From an uncultured Pseudomonadales bacterium (GTDB lineage: Bacteria > Patescibacteriota > Microgenomatia > UBA1400 > UBA1396): 64,000 nt of DNA. Shown here in pieces: positions 8,411 through 18,867 of this stretch. The notes beneath the pieces were generated by a model. The model ran no database searches, was not told where the DNA came from, and worked only from the letters and a program-made list of their open reading frames with translations. The stretch spans positions 13,716-77,715 of the forward strand of contig CAZEEI010000003.1 of assembly GCA_964511175.1 (NCBI GenBank). The letters run 5' to 3'. Numbering within the stretch: the first letter of the stretch is position 1; every line of letters starts with the position of its first letter. A program made the position numbers and the translations under genes.

Positions 8411-8450
8411 CAGGCTTGGCGGCTTATCTCAAAATGGTTAAAACTGGTAA

Positions 8451-8530
8451 TTGTACAAAAGTGATACCGATTTTGTACAAGATAATTGGTCGAACTGTAC
8501 AACTCTTAGTTTTGCCGTTTTTGATATATT
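8451..8530 (+). promoter_or_regulatory. Putative operator/promoter module: three TTGTACAA-type palindromic boxes at 22-bp phasing, followed by GTTTTGCCGTTTTTGATATATT (extended -10 TGaTATATT)
   Basis: Boxes at 8451, 8473 and 8495 (CTGTACAA). The -10 begins 20 nt after the last box. The same architecture recurs at 24759-24857 and 39839-39920. Confidence 0.55.
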
Positions 8531-8580
8531 GCCAACTACCTCAACTTGACGCTGATACCCAGACATTCTACGCTGTTGGC

Positions 8581-9243
8581 ATGGATAATCAGCCGCCAGT
8601 ACCGGTGGGTACCCCAATATCTAGTACGCCGCCGCCCCAACCAATAGCACAGATTTTTCAACCCCAAGACGTTCACGCCAACGTCAATGTTAGTGTTGTG
8701 CCGCGCGAAAACGGCTGGGTACAAACTGCTCCCGTTGATCCAGCTACACTTGGTTCCACGGACGTTGTTCCACCGGTTGTTATGCCTGCACCTCAGCCTA
8801 CTGCACCGCTACCAATCGAACCAGTTGTCCAGCCTCCGTCGGTTCCCCAACCAGAATCACCGGCCGTACCACCACCACAAGCAGAAGAAAAGCCGTCCGC
8901 CGCAGACGAAGGCAAGCCAGCCAAAGGCGACGAGGATAAATCACCACTTGAGATTCTCGAAGAAATTTTGGCCAATGCCGGTGAGGAAAAGGCCGAGCAA
9001 GAGAAAGAGGCCGCTGCTAAAAAAGCAGCTGCTGATCAGGAAAAGGCTGCCATGGCCGCCAAAGAAGCGCAGTTTAAGGAGGAAGCCGCCCAAAAAATCG
9101 CCGCCATCGCGCCGGAACTACAAGCCGCGCAGCAGCAGCGCGACAATATCGATGCCCAGCACCCAGAGGCTAAAAGCGATCAGTTGACGCCAGACCTAAC
9201 CATCAACCAACTGCGCCACGAAACGACGCTTAAGTCCGAATAA
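8581..9243 (+). CDS. Proline-rich, low-complexity protein with an Ala/Glu/Lys-rich coiled-coil C-terminus; start assigned to an internal ATG
   Basis: PxxP-rich N-terminal half followed by AEEKA-type repeats. The track ORF starts at 8416, but 8416-8580 overlaps a conserved non-coding module. Confidence 0.6.
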   Translation: MDNQPPVPVGTPISSTPPPQPIAQIFQPQDVHANVNVSVVPRENGWVQTAPVDPATLGSTDVVPPVVMPAPQPTAPLPIEPVVQPPSVPQPESPAVPPPQAEEKPSAADEGKPAKGDEDKSPLEILEEILANAGEEKAEQEKEAAAKKAAADQEKAAMAAKEAQFKEEAAQKIAAIAPELQAAQQQRDNIDAQHPEAKSDQLTPDLTINQLRHETTLKSE

Positions 9244-9300: not shown

Positions 9301-10533
9301 ATGGATATCTATAACACCTTAACACAATCGGTTGAAACCATTAGTAATCTACCAAACAAGAACAAATTTGGTGTTTATACTTGTGGTCCCACCGTTTACG
9401 ACTACGCCCACTTAGGTCATATGCGCAAGTACACTATGGATGACATTTTGCTGCGCACGCTGCGACTAGCCGGTTTTCCGGTTAAGCACGTTATGAACAT
9501 TACTGACGTCGGCCACCTGGTTTCTGATGCCGATACCGGCGAAGATAAAATGGAGAAAGGCGCCCGCCGGACGGGTAAAACCGTTTGGGAAGTGGCCAAG
9601 TTTTTTGAGGACGACTTCTGGCGTAAGTTTGATCTGATGGGTCTGATTCGCCCGGACATTGCGCCCCGCGCTACCGACCATATCCCGGAGCAGATCGAGT
9701 TAGTCCAAGCTTTGGAGAAAAATGGCTTCACCTACGTTATACCTGGCGATGGTGTGTATTTTGATACCAGTAAAGACCCACACTACGGTGAACTGGCCCA
9801 TCTTAAACTCAGTCAACAACAGGAGGGGGCGAGGATTGGTGTAGTTGAAGGTAAGCGCAATGCCAGCGATTTTGCCTTATGGAAGTTTTCACCTCAAGAT
9901 CAACAGCGACAAATGGAGTGGGAATCGCCTTGGGGGATTGGTTTCCCGGGTTGGCATATCGAATGTTCCGCTATGAGTATGAAATATTTGGGTTCGCAGT
10001 TCGCCCTACATACTGGTGGTATTGACCATATTCCCGTTCATCACCCTAACGAAATTGCTCAAGCCGAAAACGCCACCGGTAAAAGACCCTTTGTGCGTTA
10101 CTGGGTACACCACAACTTTTTGCGGATCGATGGACAAAAAATGAGTAAGTCTCTGCAGAACTTCTACACTTTGGAAGACATTGTGGCCAAAGGATTTTCA
10201 CCGATGGCTCTCAAATTGCTTTTCCTGCAGGCGCATTACCGTGACGAGCTGAACTTTACCTGGGACAGTTTGGCGGCGGCGCAAAAAGGTTACGAGCGGC
10301 TACAACGGCAGATCCAGAAATTACTGGCGGCGGCGGGTTACCAAAATCTCGAAGAAGTGCCAGATTTGGTGGGAGAACCATCGCCGGAACTGGCGCGCTT
10401 TATCGAGTTAATGGAAAATGACCTGAAGACGCCGCAGGCACTGGCGATCATGTGGGGAACGCTTAAGGGTGCCAGTTCAGCTGAGTTGCCGGATTTGAAG
10501 CGGATGTTGGGGTATTTTGGGTTAGAGGTATAG
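9301..10533 (+). CDS. cysS: Cysteinyl-tRNA synthetase (class I); short form of 410 aa
   Basis: HIGH-type motif (HLGHMR), KMSKS, and CysRS zinc-binding cysteines. Confidence 0.85.
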   Translation: MDIYNTLTQSVETISNLPNKNKFGVYTCGPTVYDYAHLGHMRKYTMDDILLRTLRLAGFPVKHVMNITDVGHLVSDADTGEDKMEKGARRTGKTVWEVAKFFEDDFWRKFDLMGLIRPDIAPRATDHIPEQIELVQALEKNGFTYVIPGDGVYFDTSKDPHYGELAHLKLSQQQEGARIGVVEGKRNASDFALWKFSPQDQQRQMEWESPWGIGFPGWHIECSAMSMKYLGSQFALHTGGIDHIPVHHPNEIAQAENATGKRPFVRYWVHHNFLRIDGQKMSKSLQNFYTLEDIVAKGFSPMALKLLFLQAHYRDELNFTWDSLAAAQKGYERLQRQIQKLLAAAGYQNLEEVPDLVGEPSPELARFIELMENDLKTPQALAIMWGTLKGASSAELPDLKRMLGYFGLEV

Positions 10534-10564
10534 TATTTTTGACCTTAACCTATGATATCTTGTG

Positions 10565-10578
10565 AATATCTAGATATT
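10565..10578 (+). promoter_or_regulatory. 14-bp palindrome AATATCTAGATATT in the hsdM upstream region; candidate operator
   Basis: Perfect core palindrome ATATCTAGATAT about 55 nt upstream of the hsdM start. The downstream HsdM carries an N-terminal HTH domain. Confidence 0.4.
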
Positions 10579-10633
10579 TACAAATCATATTTTTCTGCTA
10601 CAGTGAGCCCATGAGCAAACGAGCAGAAACAAT

Positions 10634-12340
10634 ATGAACAATTCCAACCAGCCCCAATCTCTCCTGTTAAGTATCGGTCAAGTAGCCAAAATCTTTGGTA
10701 TTCATCAAGATACCCTGAGGAATTGGGAAAAAAGGGGAATATTAACACCACTAAGGGTTGGGGCACGTAGAGATCGTCGTTACAAACAGGCAGACATTGA
10801 AAAGATTGTCGACAAAGACCTAGGCAGCTTGTTAGTCGAGATCAGCGAGCAAAAAATAACGCTCACGCAACTTAAACAATTTTTATGGAAAAGCGCCGAC
10901 ATTCTTAGGGGGAAAATCGACAGCAGTGATTATAAAAAGTACATCTTTGGGCTTTTATTTTACAAGCGAATCAGTGATACCTGGGACGAAGAATATCAGA
11001 TAACTCTGGATGAATATCATGATGAGGCGCTAGCCTTAGCTGACTATAATCACCGATTCCAAGTACCCAGGGATTGTCAGTGGTCAGTGATTACTGAGAC
11101 TTCAAAAAATATTGGGCAAAAACTAAACGACATTTTCGATAAGATTACTAATGTAAACAGCCCAAAACTAGATAAGATTTTTGCTGACCTTGACTTTGCC
11201 AACAAAGACCGCTTTCCAAATGAAACACTTCAACGACTAATTAACCACTTCTCTCAGTATAACTTTGGTAATACCTACATTAACTCTGATCTTCTAGGCG
11301 ATGCCTACGAGTACCTTATTGGCCAATTTGCAGCCGATGCAGGTAAGAAAGGCGGAGAATTCTATACCCCCCGCGAAGTTGAGCGCGTCATTATTAATAT
11401 TGTTAAGCCACATCAAAAGGACCACATCTATGACCCCACCGTAGGTTCAGGTGGCTTTCTTCTTGAGGCGTATAACTATCTTAAAAATAAGTCTGGAGAA
11501 CAGATTGCCCGCAGCCTATATCTCTATGGGCAAGAAATCAACCTCAGCACTTTTGCCATTGCCAAGATTAACATGTTCCTGCATGGACTGGATAGCGCCG
11601 ACATTAGGCGTGGTGATACACTGGCTAACCCGCAATTCCTTAACGATGTAGGCAATCTGCAAACCTTTGATATTGTTGTGGCTAATCCCCCATACTCCAT
11701 TAAGGATTGGGAGTTCGAACTATTCAAAAGTGACAAATATGGTCGAACGGAGGGTTTTGACCAGCCACCTAAAAAGAATGCTGATTACGCTTTTGTTCTC
11801 CATATTCTCAAGTCGATGAACGCCAATGGTCGGGCCGGGGTGGTATTACCGCACGGCGTTTTGTTTCGCGGCGGGAGTGAAGGGCGTATCCGTGAGCAAA
11901 TTATTAAAAGTGACCTTTTAGAGGCCATCGTGGCCCTGCCAGCTAAGCTATTCTATGGTACTGGTATTCCAGCCGCCATCCTGATCTTTAACAGAAACAA
12001 GCCGGAACATAAAAAGGGCAAGGTTCTCATTATTGATGGCGAACACGATTATTTGGAAGGTAAAAATCAAAATACGCTCAGGAAACAGGATATAGACAAA
12101 ATTGTTAAGGCTTATGACCAGTATGGGGATGCTGAAAAGTACGCCAAAGTAGTAGGTGTTAAAGAGATTGAAGAAAACGATTTCAACCTCAATGTCAGAC
12201 GCTACATTGACTCGACGGATGAGCAGGAAATGATTGATGTCAAGCAGGTTTGGAGTGAAATTAAACAGTTGGAAATAGAAAGAGACGAGATTGATAAAAA
12301 AGTGACAGGTTTTATTAAGGAGCTAGGCTATGACGATTAA
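10634..12340 (+). CDS. hsdM: Type I restriction-modification methyltransferase subunit HsdM, with an N-terminal MerR/excisionase-like HTH domain
   Basis: HTH at aa 10-60 (IGQVAKIFGIHQDTLRNWEKRG), then an HsdM_N-like helical domain and an N6-adenine methyltransferase with the NPPY motif (VVANPPYS). Confidence 0.9.
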   Translation: MNNSNQPQSLLLSIGQVAKIFGIHQDTLRNWEKRGILTPLRVGARRDRRYKQADIEKIVDKDLGSLLVEISEQKITLTQLKQFLWKSADILRGKIDSSDYKKYIFGLLFYKRISDTWDEEYQITLDEYHDEALALADYNHRFQVPRDCQWSVITETSKNIGQKLNDIFDKITNVNSPKLDKIFADLDFANKDRFPNETLQRLINHFSQYNFGNTYINSDLLGDAYEYLIGQFAADAGKKGGEFYTPREVERVIINIVKPHQKDHIYDPTVGSGGFLLEAYNYLKNKSGEQIARSLYLYGQEINLSTFAIAKINMFLHGLDSADIRRGDTLANPQFLNDVGNLQTFDIVVANPPYSIKDWEFELFKSDKYGRTEGFDQPPKKNADYAFVLHILKSMNANGRAGVVLPHGVLFRGGSEGRIREQIIKSDLLEAIVALPAKLFYGTGIPAAILIFNRNKPEHKKGKVLIIDGEHDYLEGKNQNTLRKQDIDKIVKAYDQYGDAEKYAKVVGVKEIEENDFNLNVRRYIDSTDEQEMIDVKQVWSEIKQLEIERDEIDKKVTGFIKELGYDD

Positions 12341-13154
12341 ACTAGTCATTTTTGAAGAAATCAAGCGCACCAATGAGTACCAATCAGAATATTGGTCGGC
12401 ACGGCAATTAGCCAGGGCTTTGGAGTATAAAGATTACCGCAATTTTGAAACGGTGCTTGGAAAAGCCAAAGAAGCGTGTAAAAACAGTGGTCAATCGGTA
12501 GAAGATCATTTCGGTGATGTCACCGACATGATCGAAGTCGGTAAAACTGCTTCACGAGAAATTAGTGATACCTATCTGTCCCGGTACGCTTGTTATTTGG
12601 TTGTACAAAATGCTGATCCGGCTAAAGAAATAGTCGCTTTGGGGCAAACCTATTTTGCGATCCAAACCAGAAAGCAAGAAGTTCAGGAGCAGCTTGTCGA
12701 AGATCAGAAACGATTGTTTTTGCGGGATGAAGTTACCACGCACAATAAACATCTGGCAGAAACGGCCTCTAAGGCTGGAGTGAAAAACTATGCTGTCTTT
12801 ACTAACTATGGCTATATGGGGTTATACGGTGGTTTGAAAGTGCAGGATCTCCACAAACAGAAGAGGCTTAAGAAGAGCCAGAAGATTTTAGATCACATGG
12901 GTAGTGAAGAGCTGGCAGCCAATTTATTCCGTGCTACTCAAACCGATGCCAAGATTAAGCGGGAGCAGATCCAAGGTGAGGCCAGAGCTAATCAAGCCCA
13001 TTTTGTTGTGGGCAGAAAGGTTAGGCAGACGATTGGAGAATTAGGCGGAACCATGCCGGAGAAGTTGCCAACTCCCGACGGGGTGGGACGGGCAAAGACT
13101 AGAGCTAATAAGTTGGCGGCGCAGAAGAGAAAAGAGTTGGAAAAGTCGACATGA
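12330..13154 (+). CDS. dinD: DinD/RhuM-family protein (DNA-damage-inducible protein D-like), embedded in the R-M operon
   Basis: Strong resemblance to DinD (..YWSARQLA..L.Y.D.RNF..VL.KA..AC..SG.....HF......YLSRYACYLVVQNADP..IALGQTYFAIQTR). Confidence 0.75.
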   Translation: MTIKLVIFEEIKRTNEYQSEYWSARQLARALEYKDYRNFETVLGKAKEACKNSGQSVEDHFGDVTDMIEVGKTASREISDTYLSRYACYLVVQNADPAKEIVALGQTYFAIQTRKQEVQEQLVEDQKRLFLRDEVTTHNKHLAETASKAGVKNYAVFTNYGYMGLYGGLKVQDLHKQKRLKKSQKILDHMGSEELAANLFRATQTDAKIKREQIQGEARANQAHFVVGRKVRQTIGELGGTMPEKLPTPDGVGRAKTRANKLAAQKRKELEKST

Positions 13155-14341
13155 AAAACCAAATGACAAGCAACTGGCAGGCAAAGCAAATTAAGGACTT
13201 GCTCGATTACGAGCGTCCTGATAAATATATTGTTGAAAACACATACTATATTGACTCAGGAACTCCAGTGCTGACCGCTAATAAATCCTTTATTTTGGGT
13301 TATACAGATGAAGAAACAGGTATCTACGATAATGTACCCGCAATAATTTTTGATGATTTTACAACAGACAGTAAATTTGTTGATTTTCCTTTCAAAGTTA
13401 AGTCATCCGCAATTAAAATTCTAAAAGAAAAAAGCAAAGAGGTGGATATAAGGTTTGTATTTGAGAGAATGAAATCCATCAATTTCCCTACAGGAAATCA
13501 TAAGCGATATTATATCTCTCAATACCAAAACATGAAGATTGCAGTACCCTCTTTGCCTATTCAGAAAAAAATATCCAACATTCTTTCTACTATTGATGAA
13601 GCTATTCAAAAAACGGATCAAATAATCAAAAAAACTAAAAAACTCAAGCAAGGGCTAATGAACGAATTACTAACGAAGGGTATTGGGCATAAAAAGTTTA
13701 AAAAGACAAAAATCGGTGAGATTCCTAAAAAGTGGAAAGTAACTTCTATTCTGGATTCTGATATACAAATCATTGACGGCGATAGAGGCCTTAGCTATCC
13801 CAACAAGAACGATTTTTCTAATGAAGGATATTGCTTATTCTTAAGCGCTAGAAATTTTATTGATGATCATTTTGATTTTAGAGAATACGTCTTTATTTCT
13901 AAAGAAAAAGATAATCAACTGAGAAAAGGCAAACTGAAAAAAGGGGATGTCGTTCTCACTACAAGAGGTACTGTTGGAAGTGTGGCAATTTATAATGATT
14001 CAGTTCCATTTGAGGACATTAGAATTAACTCAGGAATGTTAATTTTTCGTGCAGAGGGTGAAATCGACAATAATTTCCTTTATTTTTTACTAAAAAGTCC
14101 GTACTTTAAGGAAAGATATAATCAGTTGGGGTCTGGTTCAGCGCAACCTCAACTTCCGATTAGGAGTTTAAGAAATCTATTAATACCAATACCTACTATT
14201 GACGAACAGCGCGAAATAGCGAGCAAATTATCTTTTTTGGATTTAAAACATGATAAAGAAATTGCACAATTATTGAACTTAAAAATGCTTAAGAGTGGCT
14301 TGATGTACGATATTTTTAACCAGAAAGTACAAATTAACTAA
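13151..14341 (+). CDS. hsdS: Type I restriction-modification specificity subunit HsdS
   Basis: Two target-recognition domains separated by conserved coiled-coil spacers. Very AT-rich. Confidence 0.85.
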   Translation: MKNQMTSNWQAKQIKDLLDYERPDKYIVENTYYIDSGTPVLTANKSFILGYTDEETGIYDNVPAIIFDDFTTDSKFVDFPFKVKSSAIKILKEKSKEVDIRFVFERMKSINFPTGNHKRYYISQYQNMKIAVPSLPIQKKISNILSTIDEAIQKTDQIIKKTKKLKQGLMNELLTKGIGHKKFKKTKIGEIPKKWKVTSILDSDIQIIDGDRGLSYPNKNDFSNEGYCLFLSARNFIDDHFDFREYVFISKEKDNQLRKGKLKKGDVVLTTRGTVGSVAIYNDSVPFEDIRINSGMLIFRAEGEIDNNFLYFLLKSPYFKERYNQLGSGSAQPQLPIRSLRNLLIPIPTIDEQREIASKLSFLDLKHDKEIAQLLNLKMLKSGLMYDIFNQKVQIN

Positions 14342-14342
14342 T

Positions 14343-15215
14343 ATGAGTACATCAAGTAGATTTGACCAATTTTTAAGCAATATCAAACTAACATCTGATC
14401 AACTTGCCGATGCAAAGACTAAGTACGATGGAGTCTGTAAAAAAATACATGATCATTACTATTCGAGTGACTATGATGGTTCTACAAAACTACTTATTGG
14501 TTCTTATGGAAAGAGAACAAATATCCGTCCAGCACGAGATGTAGATGTGATTTTCATGCTTCCAGCCTCTGAATACAAACAATCAACAAATGATTATAAT
14601 TACCAGTCTTCTCTACTGCAAAAGATAAAACGCATTTTAGAAGAAAAATACCCCGATACTGACATTTGTGGCGATGGACCAGTTGTTGTCGTTAATTTTA
14701 GTAACAATCATTTTATTGAAGTAGTTCCTGCCATTGAGTTAACAAATGACAAATTTTATATTCCTTCTACAAGTAGTGGTGGCTACTGGAAGCTTGACGA
14801 CCCTCGAGCTTTATATAGGTTCATCAACGACTCAGACAATAACACCAACGGTAACACACGAAATCTTATCCGTATGATAAAAAAATGGCAGGACTCTTGT
14901 AATGTTCCAGTTAAGTCACTTGTTATAGAAATCAGAGCAGTATTATTTTTAATTGATTATGAATACAAAGATAAAGGTTCTACATACTATGACTGGATGA
15001 TTAGAGATTATTTCAAACAACTCATCGAGAAAACCAACAACACATATATTTTACCTGGATTAACCGAGAAAATTTATTACGGTGATGCTTGGAAATCAAA
15101 AGCAAAGACAGCTTATGCTCGTGCAATAAAAGCCTGTCAGTATGAGTCAGATAAAGAAGAAACATTAGCGGCCGAAGAATGGAAGAAAATATTCGGTGAA
15201 GACTATTGGTATTAA
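14343..15215 (+). CDS. cGAS/DncV-like (SMODS-type) Pol-beta superfamily nucleotidyltransferase
   Basis: hGSYGKRTNIRPARDVDVIFML gives the GS...DxD catalytic pattern, and a third acidic residue lies in the strand HFIEVVPA. The gene sits 1 nt after hsdS and is followed by an overlapping 2-TM partner. Confidence 0.65.
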   Translation: MSTSSRFDQFLSNIKLTSDQLADAKTKYDGVCKKIHDHYYSSDYDGSTKLLIGSYGKRTNIRPARDVDVIFMLPASEYKQSTNDYNYQSSLLQKIKRILEEKYPDTDICGDGPVVVVNFSNNHFIEVVPAIELTNDKFYIPSTSSGGYWKLDDPRALYRFINDSDNNTNGNTRNLIRMIKKWQDSCNVPVKSLVIEIRAVLFLIDYEYKDKGSTYYDWMIRDYFKQLIEKTNNTYILPGLTEKIYYGDAWKSKAKTAYARAIKACQYESDKEETLAAEEWKKIFGEDYWY

Positions 15216-15790
15216 ATATGGACAAAACAAATTTAGAAGTTATCAGGGAGTCTTTCGGCAAAGTTTGCTACTCTCACAAAACTCACGAAAAGGACTGCGA
15301 AATACAATCTAGGTACGCAACAATGGTGAAGTGGGTAAATATCGCTCTAATTGCCACCACGACAGGATCATTACTTAGCACATTGCTTGCTGATCAAAAC
15401 CTGATTGTTGTCAGTGCTATTTTTTCCTCCATCACGCTAGGTTTCAGCATTTTTCAAATCAGCTTTAATCCAGAAAAAAAGGCAGCGAGGTACAAACAGG
15501 TAGCTAACTCCCTGTGGCTTATTAGAGAAAAATACGTAAGCCTAATGGCCGATATTATTAACTCAAGTGTTAAGGAGAAAGAAATTATTAAACGCAGAGA
15601 CGAATTGATGAATGAACTTGATTTTCTTTATAAAGCTGCACCAAGCACCAGTAGCTCTGCATACGAAAAGGCTGGGGTTGCTCTACAGTTAAACGAGGAG
15701 CTTACATTTTCTGATAAAGAAATTAATCAATTCCTCCCAAATAGTTTGCATATTACGAGTCCAAAAAAGAATAAGCATTATGAAATTTAA
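15206..15790 (+). CDS. Two-transmembrane SLATT-like putative effector
   Basis: Two hydrophobic helices (WVNIALIATTTGSLLSTLL and LIVVSAIFSSITLGFSIFQISF) followed by a charged helical tail. Start and stop both overlap neighbouring genes, so it is translationally coupled to the nucleotidyltransferase and to hsdR. Confidence 0.55.
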   Translation: MVLNMDKTNLEVIRESFGKVCYSHKTHEKDCEIQSRYATMVKWVNIALIATTTGSLLSTLLADQNLIVVSAIFSSITLGFSIFQISFNPEKKAARYKQVANSLWLIREKYVSLMADIINSSVKEKEIIKRRDELMNELDFLYKAAPSTSSSAYEKAGVALQLNEELTFSDKEINQFLPNSLHITSPKKNKHYEI

Positions 15791-18719
15791 CGAACAGCAC
15801 ACCGTCGAAAATCATATCATCAAGTTTCTATCCATAACTCTTGGCTATGAGTACATCAAGCCAGAGGAGTTTGCCCTTTTGCGGGAGCTTGAAAACCAGT
15901 ATTTGGTTACTTCACACCTGGCAGAAGCCATTAAACAGATCAACAACCTAACCGATGATACCGAAGTGCAAAGTGTTATCAGAGAAATAAAGAAGATTGA
16001 CTCCAATGAGGGCTTCTTAGACCTGATGAGAAACGGGGTCAATCTCAAGGATCCTTCGACGGGCAAGACGAAGGATTACGCGGTTGTTGACGCCGACAAT
16101 CCCGAAAATAATCGTTTTGTCGTTACTAATCAATTTTATTTTGAAGGTAATCTGGAAAACATCAGAACCGATGTGATGGTTTTCTTGAATGGTATCCCTG
16201 TAGTCGATATCGAGGCCAAAAGCCCCACTGCCTCAACTAGTGTTAGTTACGAGAACGCCATTGGCCAGATCAAACGCTATGAGAGAGCGGCCATGAAACT
16301 CTTTTGGCCCAATATGTTTAATATAGCTACTGATGGATTAAAGACTGTTTATGGTACTACTTACGCCCCAGATCAGTATTTTCTGCAATGGCGTGATGAT
16401 GAGCTTGAAAAGAAACTAGGCAGACAATTAGAGATGACTTTGGCGGCACTATTGGACAAAGAGAGATTATTGGACATTATCAAGAACTTTATTCTTTTTG
16501 AACAAACCAAAGATGGCCGCATTAAAAAGATGGCTCGTTATCAGCAGTTAAGGGCCACCAATAAGATTCTGGAGCGAGTACGGGGTGGCGAAAAAAGACG
16601 TGGCTTAGTTTGGCATACTCAGGGTTCCGGCAAGTCACTCACGATGTTTTTCACTGCGTGGAAGCTAAGGTTTTCTAAAGAATTGAAGAATCCTAAGGTT
16701 TTTATATTAGTAGATCGAATTGACCTTGATGACCAGATTTATGACACGTTCGTCAATGCAGGCGGCACAAACGTTATACGAGTGACTTCTAGGCGTGATC
16801 TTCAGGAAAAAATCACCAATGATGAGCGAGGTATCTTTATCTCGACCATCGAAAAATTCAACGAACTGCCGCTTGATTTAGACAATCCTAATGAGAACAT
16901 TATTGTCCTTTCTGATGAAGCGCACCGGACTAACGAGGGTGTGGCGGCGATTAAATTGCGGGATTCTATGGGAAAGGCATTTTTCTTTGGCTTTACCGGT
17001 ACACCGATTGACAAAAAAACACTCAATACTCATCGTAATTTTGGTCAAGAGGGTGAGAGGTATTTGGATTATTACTCAATTCAGCAGGCTATTGATGATG
17101 GGGCAACCCTGCCGGTCACCTATGAAGCAAGGTTATCTAAATTTTTTATTAACGAGGATCGAATTGATGAGCAATTCGACGCAGTAACACAGGATCTCAG
17201 TGCAGAACAAAAACAGCTAATTATGAGGCGCTTTGGTAAGAAAGAGGCCTTGATCAAACTCGATCAACGGATGAGGATCATTGCTCAGGATATTATTGAT
17301 CACTATAGGCTTTATATTGAACCCAATGGTTTCAAAGCGCAAATTGTCTGCTATGACCGGGAAGAGACGGCTAAATATAAACAATTGCTGGATGAGCTGG
17401 TGTCCCCCGAATGTACGGCGGTGGTGTATTCATCTGGAGATCCAAATACAGATAGTGAGCGCTTGCGCGAGTACAACACGACTAAATCTCAGCGTGAACA
17501 GATAATTGCTTCTTTTAAGGATCCAAATAGTTCTCTCAAATTGCTTCTGGTCTGTGACATGCTTTTAACCGGTTTTGATGCGCCAATTGAGCAGGCAATG
17601 TACCTGGACAAGCCTCTAAGAGACCATAATTTACTACAAGCAATTGCTCGGACAAACCGTACTTATCCTCATAAGGGTTGTGGCAAAATTATTGACTACT
17701 ACGGCATTACGCGCAATCTCTATGATGCTCTTAATTTTGACGAGAGCATCATTGATTCAGCTTTGATTGATCTTGATTATTTGAAGCAGGAGTTTCTCGA
17801 AATACTGGGTGAAATTAAAGATATTTTTGTTGGCATCAATCAGGAAGATCCGTCCATCAACAACCTCAGAGTTTGTCTGAAAATTTTTATTGATAATGAG
17901 GATAAGCAGAGATTCTTTACCGACAAGTATTCCAGGATGAAGCTATTATTTGAGGTATTATCTCCCGATCCTTTCTTGGGTGAATATATTCGCATTTTTG
18001 AGTGGATTACTAGTGTTTATATTGCTTTTGTCAATGAGTTTCGATCGGAAAACTTGGCAATGAACGCTTTTAGGAATGGTGATATTCCCACTTTTGGTGA
18101 ATATGGGGAAAAAGTCAAAAAACTTATTCAAGACAATCTGGATTATGAGGGCATTACCAAAAACTTTCGAGAATTAAATATTAATGATATTTACACTCTC
18201 GAGCGTCTGGACAAAATGGATGATGAAGAAAAAGCACTAGCACTCGAAAAAATGCTCAGCCAGGAAATTACAGCCAATCTTGACACAGACCCCACTTTTC
18301 AGAAGTTTAGTGAAAGACTTAGAGCCATTCGTGAGGAGTTTGAGCATCATCAGATTGATCTTTCGGAACGAATTAAACGCTATTACGAGTTAATGAATGA
18401 CATTAAAAATAAAAATGACTTGGCTAAAGAACTGGGACTAAATCTGAGAGAATACGGTTTATATCTAATTTGTCAGGAATATATACCAGAAACTTCTCAA
18501 TCAGTGTTAACCGATTTATCTAGAGATTTGTCAAGAAGAATAGAATCAATTCTCGACGTAGATTGGCAAACCTCCTCAAAACGTGAGGAATTTTTGAAAG
18601 GTATTAAACAGGCAATACAAGAGGTTATTTTAAGGGATTATCGGGGAAGAATTAAAGTAGGTGCTTTCCCCAAAATGCTCAATAGGTTGGTGGATATAAC
18701 TTTTAAAAAATTTACCTAG
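15780..18719 (+). CDS. hsdR: Type I restriction enzyme R subunit HsdR
   Basis: SF2 helicase motifs (TQGSGKSLTMFF, DEAHR), the ResIII/HsdR family and a long C-terminal domain. Confidence 0.92.
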   Translation: MKFNEQHTVENHIIKFLSITLGYEYIKPEEFALLRELENQYLVTSHLAEAIKQINNLTDDTEVQSVIREIKKIDSNEGFLDLMRNGVNLKDPSTGKTKDYAVVDADNPENNRFVVTNQFYFEGNLENIRTDVMVFLNGIPVVDIEAKSPTASTSVSYENAIGQIKRYERAAMKLFWPNMFNIATDGLKTVYGTTYAPDQYFLQWRDDELEKKLGRQLEMTLAALLDKERLLDIIKNFILFEQTKDGRIKKMARYQQLRATNKILERVRGGEKRRGLVWHTQGSGKSLTMFFTAWKLRFSKELKNPKVFILVDRIDLDDQIYDTFVNAGGTNVIRVTSRRDLQEKITNDERGIFISTIEKFNELPLDLDNPNENIIVLSDEAHRTNEGVAAIKLRDSMGKAFFFGFTGTPIDKKTLNTHRNFGQEGERYLDYYSIQQAIDDGATLPVTYEARLSKFFINEDRIDEQFDAVTQDLSAEQKQLIMRRFGKKEALIKLDQRMRIIAQDIIDHYRLYIEPNGFKAQIVCYDREETAKYKQLLDELVSPECTAVVYSSGDPNTDSERLREYNTTKSQREQIIASFKDPNSSLKLLLVCDMLLTGFDAPIEQAMYLDKPLRDHNLLQAIARTNRTYPHKGCGKIIDYYGITRNLYDALNFDESIIDSALIDLDYLKQEFLEILGEIKDIFVGINQEDPSINNLRVCLKIFIDNEDKQRFFTDKYSRMKLLFEVLSPDPFLGEYIRIFEWITSVYIAFVNEFRSENLAMNAFRNGDIPTFGEYGEKVKKLIQDNLDYEGITKNFRELNINDIYTLERLDKMDDEEKALALEKMLSQEITANLDTDPTFQKFSERLRAIREEFEHHQIDLSERIKRYYELMNDIKNKNDLAKELGLNLREYGLYLICQEYIPETSQSVLTDLSRDLSRRIESILDVDWQTSSKREEFLKGIKQAIQEVILRDYRGRIKVGAFPKMLNRLVDITFKKFT

Positions 18720-18867
18720 CCAACAAAAAAACGCCCGGGGCGGTTCTTTGCACTTGCCACTCCATTACTGGGGTGTCGTCTTGTCTGTTTAATGGTAGCA
18801 AAATTGGTTTTTCTGTCAAGGTGTTAACCGTGGACCTAAGAAAAAAAAGTTTCGTTTTAGGAAAAAA

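Follow-up and report, generated by a model that had tools for sequence, protein, structure and literature searches.

Type I operons of the cyclic-oligonucleotide-based anti-phage signalling system (CBASS) typically combine a cyclase of clade D, E or F with an effector that has two or four transmembrane (TM) helices (bioRxiv 10.1101/2023.05.21.541620). Among those with SLATT effectors, a Lactococcus Type I CBASS with a 190-aa effector of the Pfam family PF18186 (SLATT_4) protects against phage (PMC11381338), and so do the CdnF-SLATT6 operons of Escherichia coli (bioRxiv 10.1101/2023.05.21.541620). Here we describe a two-gene pair of this kind in a 64,000-nt stretch of contig CAZEEI010000003.1 (assembly GCA_964511175.1, positions 13,716 to 77,715), from a member of the Patescibacteria or candidate phyla radiation (CPR); the whole stretch is referred to below as the window. 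The pair consists of a SMODS-family nucleotidyltransferase of the cGAS/DncV-like kind (CD-NTase) followed by a SLATT_4 protein, and is flanked by hsdS and hsdR in a Type I restriction-modification (R-M) operon. We consider it probable that the two genes form an autonomous, minimal Type I CBASS module for abortive infection, co-transcribed with the R-M genes and adding a second layer to their defence.

The described systems most like it, Lactococcus pUCCL631 and E. coli CdnF04/05-SLATT6, likewise join a SMODS/CD-NTase enzyme to a two-TM SLATT protein and lack ancillary Cap genes. In Pfam family and in length (190 aa) the Lactococcus effector agrees with the window protein. The cyclases differ, since the Lactococcus enzyme has ca. 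400 aa with a C-terminal AGS-C domain and the E. coli ones are of clade F, whereas the window cyclase has 290 aa, no extra domain and a clade D enzyme as its nearest structure. Gene order is effector then cyclase in Lactococcus and cyclase then effector in the window. Neither the Lactococcus nor the E. coli SLATT systems have been described as embedded in R-M, in contrast to the window pair, which is embedded and comes from a CPR host.

That nearest structure is CdnD of Pseudomonas aeruginosa (PaCdnD; PDB 6P82, 6P8J and 6P8U), from a Type III CBASS, which resembles the window cyclase in its size of ca. 300 aa, in its GS...DxD...third-acidic active site and in having no large activation loop. 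It differs in sequence (ca. 22% identity), in its third acidic residue (Asp, as against Glu in the window) and in its HORMA/Trip13-like regulation, for which the window has no such genes. PaCdnD presumably works with the NucC nuclease.

The position of the pair has a parallel in the EcoprrI Type Ic R-M locus, where prrC presumably lies between hsdS and hsdR. Like the window cassette, this abortive-infection effector occupies the hsdS-hsdR slot, co-oriented with the hsd genes. PrrC differs in being an ABC-ATPase/tRNase that is almost always linked to R-M and is physically silenced by the R-M enzyme, whereas the cassette is unrelated to it in sequence, often stands alone and is not known to interact with Hsd proteins. 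Payne et al. found PrrC almost exclusively embedded in Type I R-M, and reported that 96.7% of embedded genes are co-oriented with their host system, suggesting co-regulation. Same-orientation defence cargo within hsd genes is also represented by TgvAB of Vibrio cholerae VPI-2 and by the HEC/PDC candidates that Payne et al. obtained through "guilt-by-embedding". The dinD gene of the window operon is itself one of these candidates (PADLOC candidate PDC-S13); the cassette differs from them in belonging to an already classified system. No explicit report of CBASS as cargo of a Type I R-M operon turned up in Payne et al. (text and supplements, without the figures) or in the other literature searched, a silence that counts as weak evidence.

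The cyclase and its SLATT_4 partner

The product of the first gene matches the Pfam SMODS family (PF18144) over residues 1-157 with 109.8 bits against a gathering score of 26.5 (E=2e-31), and the PADLOC hidden Markov model of CBASS oligonucleotide cyclases over residues 5-286 (3.6e-97). The sequence-only reading had proposed a cGAS/DncV-like SMODS nucleotidyltransferase from three motifs, and these profiles bear it out. The motifs are all located in this open reading frame (ORF): GSYGKRT at aa 53-59 (nt 14499-14519), DVDV at aa 66-69 (nt 14538-14549) and IEVVPA at aa 125-130 (nt 14715-14732). Across 48 aligned homologues, which share 49-87% identity with the window protein, G53, S54 and D66 never vary, and D68 and E126 are kept in at least 90%. 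PaCdnD, the top PDB match by sequence (E=8e-9), has D62/D64 and its third Asp at the positions of these catalytic residues. An AlphaFold2 model built from the same alignment (mean predicted local distance difference test, pLDDT, 93.6; predicted template modelling score 0.90) has the bilobed cGAS/DncV-like fold. The top 50 PDB matches of this model in Foldseek are exclusively CD-NTases or cGAS, with PaCdnD first (template modelling score 0.79-0.82) and then CdnB, CdnC, the CdnD enzymes of Enterobacter cloacae and Salmonella, CdnG, DncV, CdnE and cGAS. The comparison with DncV and CdnE folds that had been proposed as a check thus gave the expected relatives.

An unrelated Pol-beta nucleotidyltransferase (an MNT antitoxin, an antibiotic nucleotidyltransferase or an enzyme of the CCA-adding type) that adjoins a membrane protein by chance would find some backing in weak NCBIfam matches to the archaeal CCA-adding enzyme (23 bits) and to an anti-phage nucleotidyltransferase (17 bits). 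However, these scores are far under the respective cut-offs of 281 and 350 bits, the SMODS and CBASS cyclase profiles match over the full length, the 50 closest structures are all CD-NTases or cGAS, and the pairing of the cyclase with a two-TM gene is kept across 100 loci. In the Pfam scan of the cyclase neither NTP_transf_2 nor KNTase gave a match at E<=0.01. A chance neighbourhood of this sort is extremely unlikely, and the identities as antibiotic nucleotidyltransferase, MNT or CCA enzyme are rejected by the Pfam, PADLOC and Foldseek results. The joint outcome that would have undone the sequence-only reading, namely assignment to an antibiotic nucleotidyltransferase or MNT together with a partner without TM helices, was looked for and did not appear.

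The partner is indeed a two-TM SLATT-like protein, with two helices evident both by hydropathy and in a helical-hairpin model. Pfam assigns it to SLATT_4 (PF18186) with 175.7 bits against 27 (E=8e-52), NCBIfam to SLATT_4 (NF033632) with 130.1 bits against a cut-off of 55, and PADLOC to the CBASS 2TM effectors (2.3e-60). The TM segments, residues 43-62 and 67-86 in the 194-aa numbering (39-58 and 63-82 in the 190-aa numbering), are uncharged, reach a Kyte-Doolittle 19-residue mean of up to 1.95 and are separated by a loop of four residues (DQNL). Since both flanks are rich in Lys and Arg, the hairpin fits an N-in/C-in topology. The AlphaFold model (pLDDT 88) is all-helical: a long N-terminal helix continues into TM1, a sharp turn leads to TM2, and a helical bundle in the cytoplasm follows. 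Two cytoplasmic motifs are conserved among SLATT_4 homologues, RESFGxVxYSHKTHEK ahead of TM1 (RESFGxV..HKTHEK, nt 15245-15292) and NEELTFSDxEIxxFLP close to the C-terminus (NEELTFSD, nt 15692-15715), from which we infer a ligand-sensing face. The invariant residues include R10, K21, T22, H23, K25, E160, F164 and E168 in the 190-aa numbering.

The two ORFs have the lengths first given for them, 290 aa at 14343-15215 and, counted from the first TTG, 194 aa at 15206-15790. A 10-nt overlap between them, taken to imply stoichiometric co-expression, fared less well. Nearly all of 40 aligned homologues start with MD(K/T)TNLQVIRESFG, equivalent to ATG 15218, with P0136 as the visible exception, as its N-terminal extension resembles that of the window; in the gene calls of relatives the SLATT gene begins 1-3 nt past the cyclase stop. 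On the grounds of this alignment and these gene calls, ATG 15218 is preferred over TTG 15206, and the product is likely to have 190 aa and to leave a 2-nt gap to the cyclase stop (TAAatATG). The overlap, and with it the argument on stoichiometry, depends on a start codon without support among homologues; the genes are still tightly coupled, without overlapping. The public gene call for SLATT_4 has 81 aa only, on contig DNA that is base-for-base identical to the window, and is therefore a gene-caller artefact and not the sign of a frameshift.

That 81-aa fragment, the ambiguous start codon (TTG 15206 or ATG 15218) and a cyclase that scores under the NCBIfam equivalog cut-offs (see below) might be read as marks of inactive or decaying hitch-hiking cargo. 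However, both ORFs are full length with profile matches from end to end, the catalytic and SLATT signature residues are intact, and the short call arose on identical DNA. Moreover, both genes are under purifying selection: comparisons for the cyclase and SLATT_4 gave dN (nonsynonymous divergence) values of 0.07-0.29 with saturated synonymous sites, and dN/dS of about 0.06-0.07 where computable. Decay is thus very unlikely.

Embedding in R-M operons and mode of action

By the window annotation and Pfam, the cyclase and SLATT_4 genes are cargo in the hsdS-hsdR gap of a Type I R-M operon with the order hsdM(MerR-HTH)-dinD-hsdS-cyclase-SLATT_4-hsdR, all on the plus strand (HTH, helix-turn-helix). 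The minimal CBASS-like pair of the sequence-only reading therefore stands as to its identity and not as a free-standing locus. From hsdM through hsdR the intergenic spacings are, in order, -11, -4, +1, +2 and -11 nt, so that the cyclase ATG follows the hsdS stop codon after 1 nt and the hsdR start overlaps the SLATT_4 stop by 11 nt. A scan for a promoter or terminator internal to the cassette gave nothing above shuffled expectation. With no space for a promoter of its own, a start coupled to the hsdS stop and an end that overlaps hsdR, the cassette would be expressed as cargo of the R-M operon.

Three relatives with cyclases 78-87% identical to that of the window (L011, L012/L013 and L014) have the order hsdM-hsdS-cyclase-SLATT_4-hsdR-YgjP. 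Their HsdM (75-81% identity) and HsdR (71-81% identity) are close to those of the window as well, which indicates that this operon travels as a unit. In a further locus (L021; cyclase 73%) the cassette occupies the same hsdS-to-hsdR slot, with extra cargo, in a Type I family unrelated to that of the window (HsdM 31%, HsdR 35%), and this insertion is therefore independent. More distant are an Arcobacter plasmid (CP146529.1, L102; cyclase 36%) with the order hsdM-RhuM-hsdS-cyclase-SLATT-DUF87-x-hsdR-SprT, and Lysinibacillus odysseyi (L009; cyclase 33%) with hsdM-dinD-hsdS-hsdR-YgjP-cyclase-SLATT_4. The hsdS stop and the start of the cyclase are coupled (+1 or -4 nt) in six loci, namely the window, L011, L012, L014, L021 and L102, and further hsdS-cyclase junctions were found in L022, L037 and L069.

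Type I R-M is lacking around cassettes with 81%, 75%, 62% and 58% identity; stand-alone cassettes, at 58-81% identity, are found in L015/L016, L017, L019 and a Rhodococcus plasmid. Their settings are the end of a Dcm/PDC-M33 cluster, the vicinity of ApeA and HEPN/MNT genes, and a conjugative element beside ardA. In the first of these, a groundwater Patescibacteria contig (L015:2194-8004; cyclase 81%), the cassette comes after a Dcm methylase with Vsr, PDC-M33A/B/C and two unknown genes, and the cyclase overlaps the last upstream gene by 4 nt. This overlap indicates that also outside Type I R-M the cassette can be appended, without its own promoter, to a defence cluster of the DNA-modification type. 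The wider family was sampled in 80 metagenome loci with 40-82% cyclase identity; hsd genes lay within 5 kb of the cassette in only six of them, and in 1 of 18 loci with adequate flanks. When hsd genes do accompany it, the cassette may be upstream of hsdM (L082, L068), after hsdS, after hsdR-YgjP (L009) or divergent (L059). Given the stand-alone copies, the variable position and the low adjacency in the wider family, a fixed "R-M-CBASS hybrid system" was rejected as a general rule.

The same data bear on a PrrC-like guard, in which the cyclase or SLATT_4 would be kept latent by the HsdM2S1R2 enzyme, or would monitor it. A phage anti-restriction protein (Ocr, ArdA or Stp-like) that disables the enzyme would then turn failed restriction into abortive infection. 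In favour of it, the cassette takes the hsdS-hsdR slot as prrC does, and the arrangement hsdS-cyclase-SLATT-(x)-hsdR repeats in L011, L012/L013 and L014 and, independently, in L021 and the Arcobacter plasmid CP146529.1; the junctions in L022, L037 and L069 and the coupling to the hsdS stop in six loci point the same way. However, the near-obligate linkage to Type I R-M that marks PrrC is absent here, as equally close cassettes occur outside R-M, hsd genes are nearby in few of the metagenome loci, and the position relative to them is variable. Within the window lineage the distances are incongruent, with the cyclase closest to L011 (dN 0.07) and hsdM and hsdR closest to L012/L014, which argues for modular exchange rather than co-evolution. 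In addition, few neighbours are as common in defence islands as Type I R-M, and that unrelated systems are embedded in it is a general phenomenon. For these reasons we regard a guard as improbable. The same low probability applies to a cassette wired to the surrounding R-M enzyme in such a way that loss of HsdMSR, or DNA products generated by R-M, would trigger a cyclase without a sensor of its own. If true, such wiring would supply the long-missing activation cue of loop-less minimal CD-NTases and would explain the repeated landing directly after hsdS in unrelated R-M backgrounds.

The pairing with a two-TM protein is far more constant than the surroundings. In 61 of the 80 metagenome loci the sequence extends at least 700 nt past the cyclase; 59 of these have a two-TM protein after it, SLATT_4 in 29 and a second type in 30, and the remaining 2 are unrecognised. 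SLATT_4 also follows the cyclase directly in the window and in L009-L021. The second type has ca. 180-190 aa, begins with ...CLYTSTSLFIWLR... and has no Pfam match at E<=0.01 (L002:10837-11406, L004, L006 and about 30 of L022-L101). This looks like one cyclase lineage with swapped effectors, in which about half of the family would use a protein other than SLATT_4. Two metagenome contigs (L027:2488-3363 and L028:3156-4031) have a second cyclase homologue ca. 1.3 kb downstream of the first cyclase-SLATT_4 pair, and may hold tandem CBASS cassettes.

In every defining feature that can be tested, the pair agrees with SMODS/CD-NTase enzymes, with SLATT_4 and with Type I CBASS. The gene content is that of Type I, a cyclase and a single effector; Cap2/Cap3 (E1-E2/JAB), HORMA, TRIP13 or other ancillary genes were found neither among the operon proteins nor in the relatives. 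By analogy with characterised relatives, a cue of phage infection would activate the compact CD-NTase, which would then synthesise a cyclic di- or oligonucleotide. With its tight two-helix hairpin SLATT_4 would sit in the inner membrane, its two ends on the cytoplasmic side, and its conserved cytoplasmic helical domain would bind the cyclic oligonucleotide. The bound effector, gated in this way as in related systems, would oligomerise and cause the membrane to collapse, and the cell would die before phage progeny are released. Expression would be borrowed from the R-M operon, probably through one promoter upstream of hsdM. The two layers are most likely independent, with restriction of unmodified DNA acting first and suicide by CBASS following upon its failure.

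Several points weigh against this autonomous CBASS module. Experimental protection against phage is known from distant relatives only. The nearest solved CD-NTase has only ca. 22% identity, too little for an assignment of clade and product; by clade, the nearest solved enzymes are of D (PaCdnD) and then of B and C, all at <=22% identity. The third catalytic residue is Glu in the window cyclase and Asp in PaCdnD. Scores against the NCBIfam equivalogs CBASS_cyclase_a and CBASS_cyclase_b (121.3 and 66.1 bits) are below the 200-bit cut-off, and on these profiles we place the enzyme as CBASS-type, outside both curated groups. As to the infection trigger, the cyclase model contains no disordered stretch with pLDDT under 50, and therefore no protease-tripwire loop of ca. 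30 aa. For SLATT_4, sequence and fold searches returned no solved homologue, and how SLATT proteins sense their signal and are gated was still open as of April 2026 (bioRxiv 10.64898/2026.04.29.721553). Counts in a promoter scan across the region equal the shuffled expectation, so the promoter assignment is weak. Finally, the recurrent placement right after hsdS in several unrelated R-M backgrounds could exceed mere co-localisation.

Activation by a protease tripwire was considered for the window cyclase. In cyclases of clades A and G and in some of clade D, a loop of ca. 30 aa is cleaved by phage prohead proteases, and loop-less clade D enzymes did not respond to protease (Hobbs & Kranzusch 2026). 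Since the model is loop-less, this route is considered unlikely here.

The direction of signalling could also be the inverse, Panoptes-like or toxin-antitoxin-like, with a constitutive cyclase product that keeps SLATT_4 closed and phage sponges or nucleases that deplete it and free the toxic effector. Panoptes (mCpol and 2TMbeta) and DRT10 (a reverse transcriptase and SLATT_5) have in common with the window pair a minimal nucleotide- or nucleic-acid-synthesising enzyme next to a two-TM effector, and mCpol-2TMbeta is a precedent for a two-gene system of this design (PMC12657230). The compactness of the window cyclase, with no recognisable regulatory loop or domain, would suit a constitutive enzyme, and some CD-NTases are constitutively active in vitro (bioRxiv 10.1101/2023.05.21.541620). 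Panoptes and DRT10 nevertheless differ in the folds of their enzymes (Cas10 palm and reverse transcriptase) and in their effectors (2TMbeta and SLATT_5), and it is Panoptes that signals by inhibition. The window pair contains neither the Cas10-palm mCpol nor the 2TMbeta protein that define that system; it combines a Pol-beta-fold SMODS enzyme with a helical SLATT_4, and the SMODS and SLATT operons tested so far act as conventional CBASS. We therefore give inverse signalling a very small chance, and retain conventional Type I CBASS as the probable mode of action.

Operon, island and neighbouring genes

The features of the operon are collected in Table 1. HsdM, HsdS and HsdR are all encoded with intact motifs, namely GSGGF at aa 271 and NPPY at aa 351 of HsdM and DIEAK at aa 143, GSGKS at aa 282 and DEAH at aa 379 of HsdR, and by sequence the Type I R-M system is complete. 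HsdM scores 280 bits against TIGR00497 (cut-off 242.75), and its N-terminus matches Pfam MerR_1 (2e-10) at residues 13-58 (window 10634-10810 = residues 1-60). A MerR-type HTH is likewise found on the HsdM of L011, L012 and L014.

Table 1 Coordinates of the features discussed (positions in the window unless a related locus is named)
Feature	Position	Strand	Details
Candidate operon promoter region	10546..10604	+	block TAACCTATGA 10546-10555; 24-bp palindrome 10560-10583; TTTACA-16-TACAGT with extended TG 10577-10604
hsdM, Type I R-M methyltransferase with N-terminal MerR-type HTH	10634..12340	+	Pfam N6_Mtase 3e-108, HsdM_N 5e-24
dinD-like gene, Bro-N domain	12330..13154	+	NF008573 DNA damage-inducible protein D, 371 bits vs cut-off 242; PADLOC candidate PDC-S13 2e-111
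hsdS, specificity subunit of Type I R-M; two target-recognition domains	13151..14341	+	Pfam Methylase_S in two stretches, 1.7e-22; PADLOC Specificity_I 9e-60
CD-NTase / SMODS nucleotide cyclase, 290 aa	14343..15215	+	catalytic motif G53-S54, D66, D68, E126
SLATT_4 two-TM effector, 190 aa from conserved ATG	15218..15790	+	mechanical ORF from TTG 15206 = 194 aa; TM1 nt 15332-15391; TM2 nt 15404-15463
hsdR, Type I restriction/translocase subunit	15780..18719	+	TIGR00348 549 bits vs 284.55; Pfam HSDR_N, SWI2_SNF2, T1R_D3-like, T1RH-like_C
YgjP/SprT-like gene in relatives	L011:12351-12920; L012:12361-12933; L014:11555-12127; L009:9182-9913; L102:16657-		

The candidate promoter, with -35/-10-like hexamers ca. 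30 nt 5' of the hsdM ATG, is the sole promoter-like site in the cysS-hsdM intergenic region, and it may serve the whole operon. The block TAACCTATGA upstream of hsdM is invariant among the window, L011, L012 and L014. The 24-bp palindrome next to it overlaps the -35-like hexamer and was seen in the window only. Taken together, the MerR-type HTH, the invariant block and the palindrome at the -35-like hexamer suggest that HsdM may autoregulate the entire operon, the CBASS cargo included. The palindrome as a conserved operator of the MerR-type HTH was rejected, since only the adjoining 10-nt block is kept in related operons. The scan found no terminator-like site from hsdM to the last ca. 150 nt of hsdR; a single one is located near the end of hsdR, at 18573-18589, in counts not above shuffled expectation.

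The dinD-like gene shares 11 nt with hsdM and 4 nt with hsdS. Between hsdM and hsdS, Lysinibacillus likewise has dinD (L009:3864-4763) and the Arcobacter plasmid a gene of the RhuM family (L102:5548-6531); the slot is empty in L011, L012 and L014. From this varying content, the operon appears to have two separate cargo slots. Every related R-M operon examined has a gene for a YgjP/SprT-like metallopeptidase 3' of hsdR. The window has none, and there hsdR is followed by 148 nt (18720-18867) and then by the convergent uvrA.

The operon makes up an 8.3-kb block with 33-45% GC, between cysS and uvrA, in flanks of ca. 50% GC. Two sister genomes, with CysS 76% and 71% identical, retain the cysS-uvrA synteny without the block, which is therefore an acquired island. 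Direct repeats or att-like sites were sought at its borders and only short repeats at chance level were seen; Rfam found no structured RNAs in the island, the only one being a tRNA-Met at 24.6 kb. The named relatives of CysS are all Patescibacteria/CPR, the best of them (71%) from Candidatus Woesebacteria, and it is on these that the placement of the host is based. The interval between cysS and uvrA (window 9301-10533 compared with L104 and L105) is a variable slot in this lineage: the window has the R-M/CBASS island there, L105 two small genes and L104 ABC-transporter/permease cargo. Upstream of cysS, at 8416-9243, is a 275-aa ORF very rich in Pro, Ala, Glu and Lys (PPVPVGTPISSTPPPQP...; EEKAEQEKEAAAKKAAADQEKAA), which encodes a low-complexity protein that is probably surface-bound or secreted.

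Implications

In kind, the pair is an ordinary Type I CBASS, of a textbook form that PADLOC-type tools can call; what is unusual is its seat between hsdS and hsdR in a CPR bacterium. Defence cargo within Type I R-M is a phenomenon already described, to which the pair adds one more case. The residual interest lies in the recurrent embedding in R-M and in the unsolved mechanism of SLATT effectors. As to the first, a compact CD-NTase and SLATT_4 module free of accessory genes is fixed within an R-M operon across several diverged genomes of small-genome Patescibacteria. The independent hsdS-to-cyclase junctions in unrelated R-M families and phyla provide a test case to tell co-regulation only from functional coupling. 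As to the second, no SLATT effector has a solved structure or a known gating mechanism, and a 190-aa SLATT_4 with a confident model and sharply conserved cytoplasmic motifs is a tractable target for their study.

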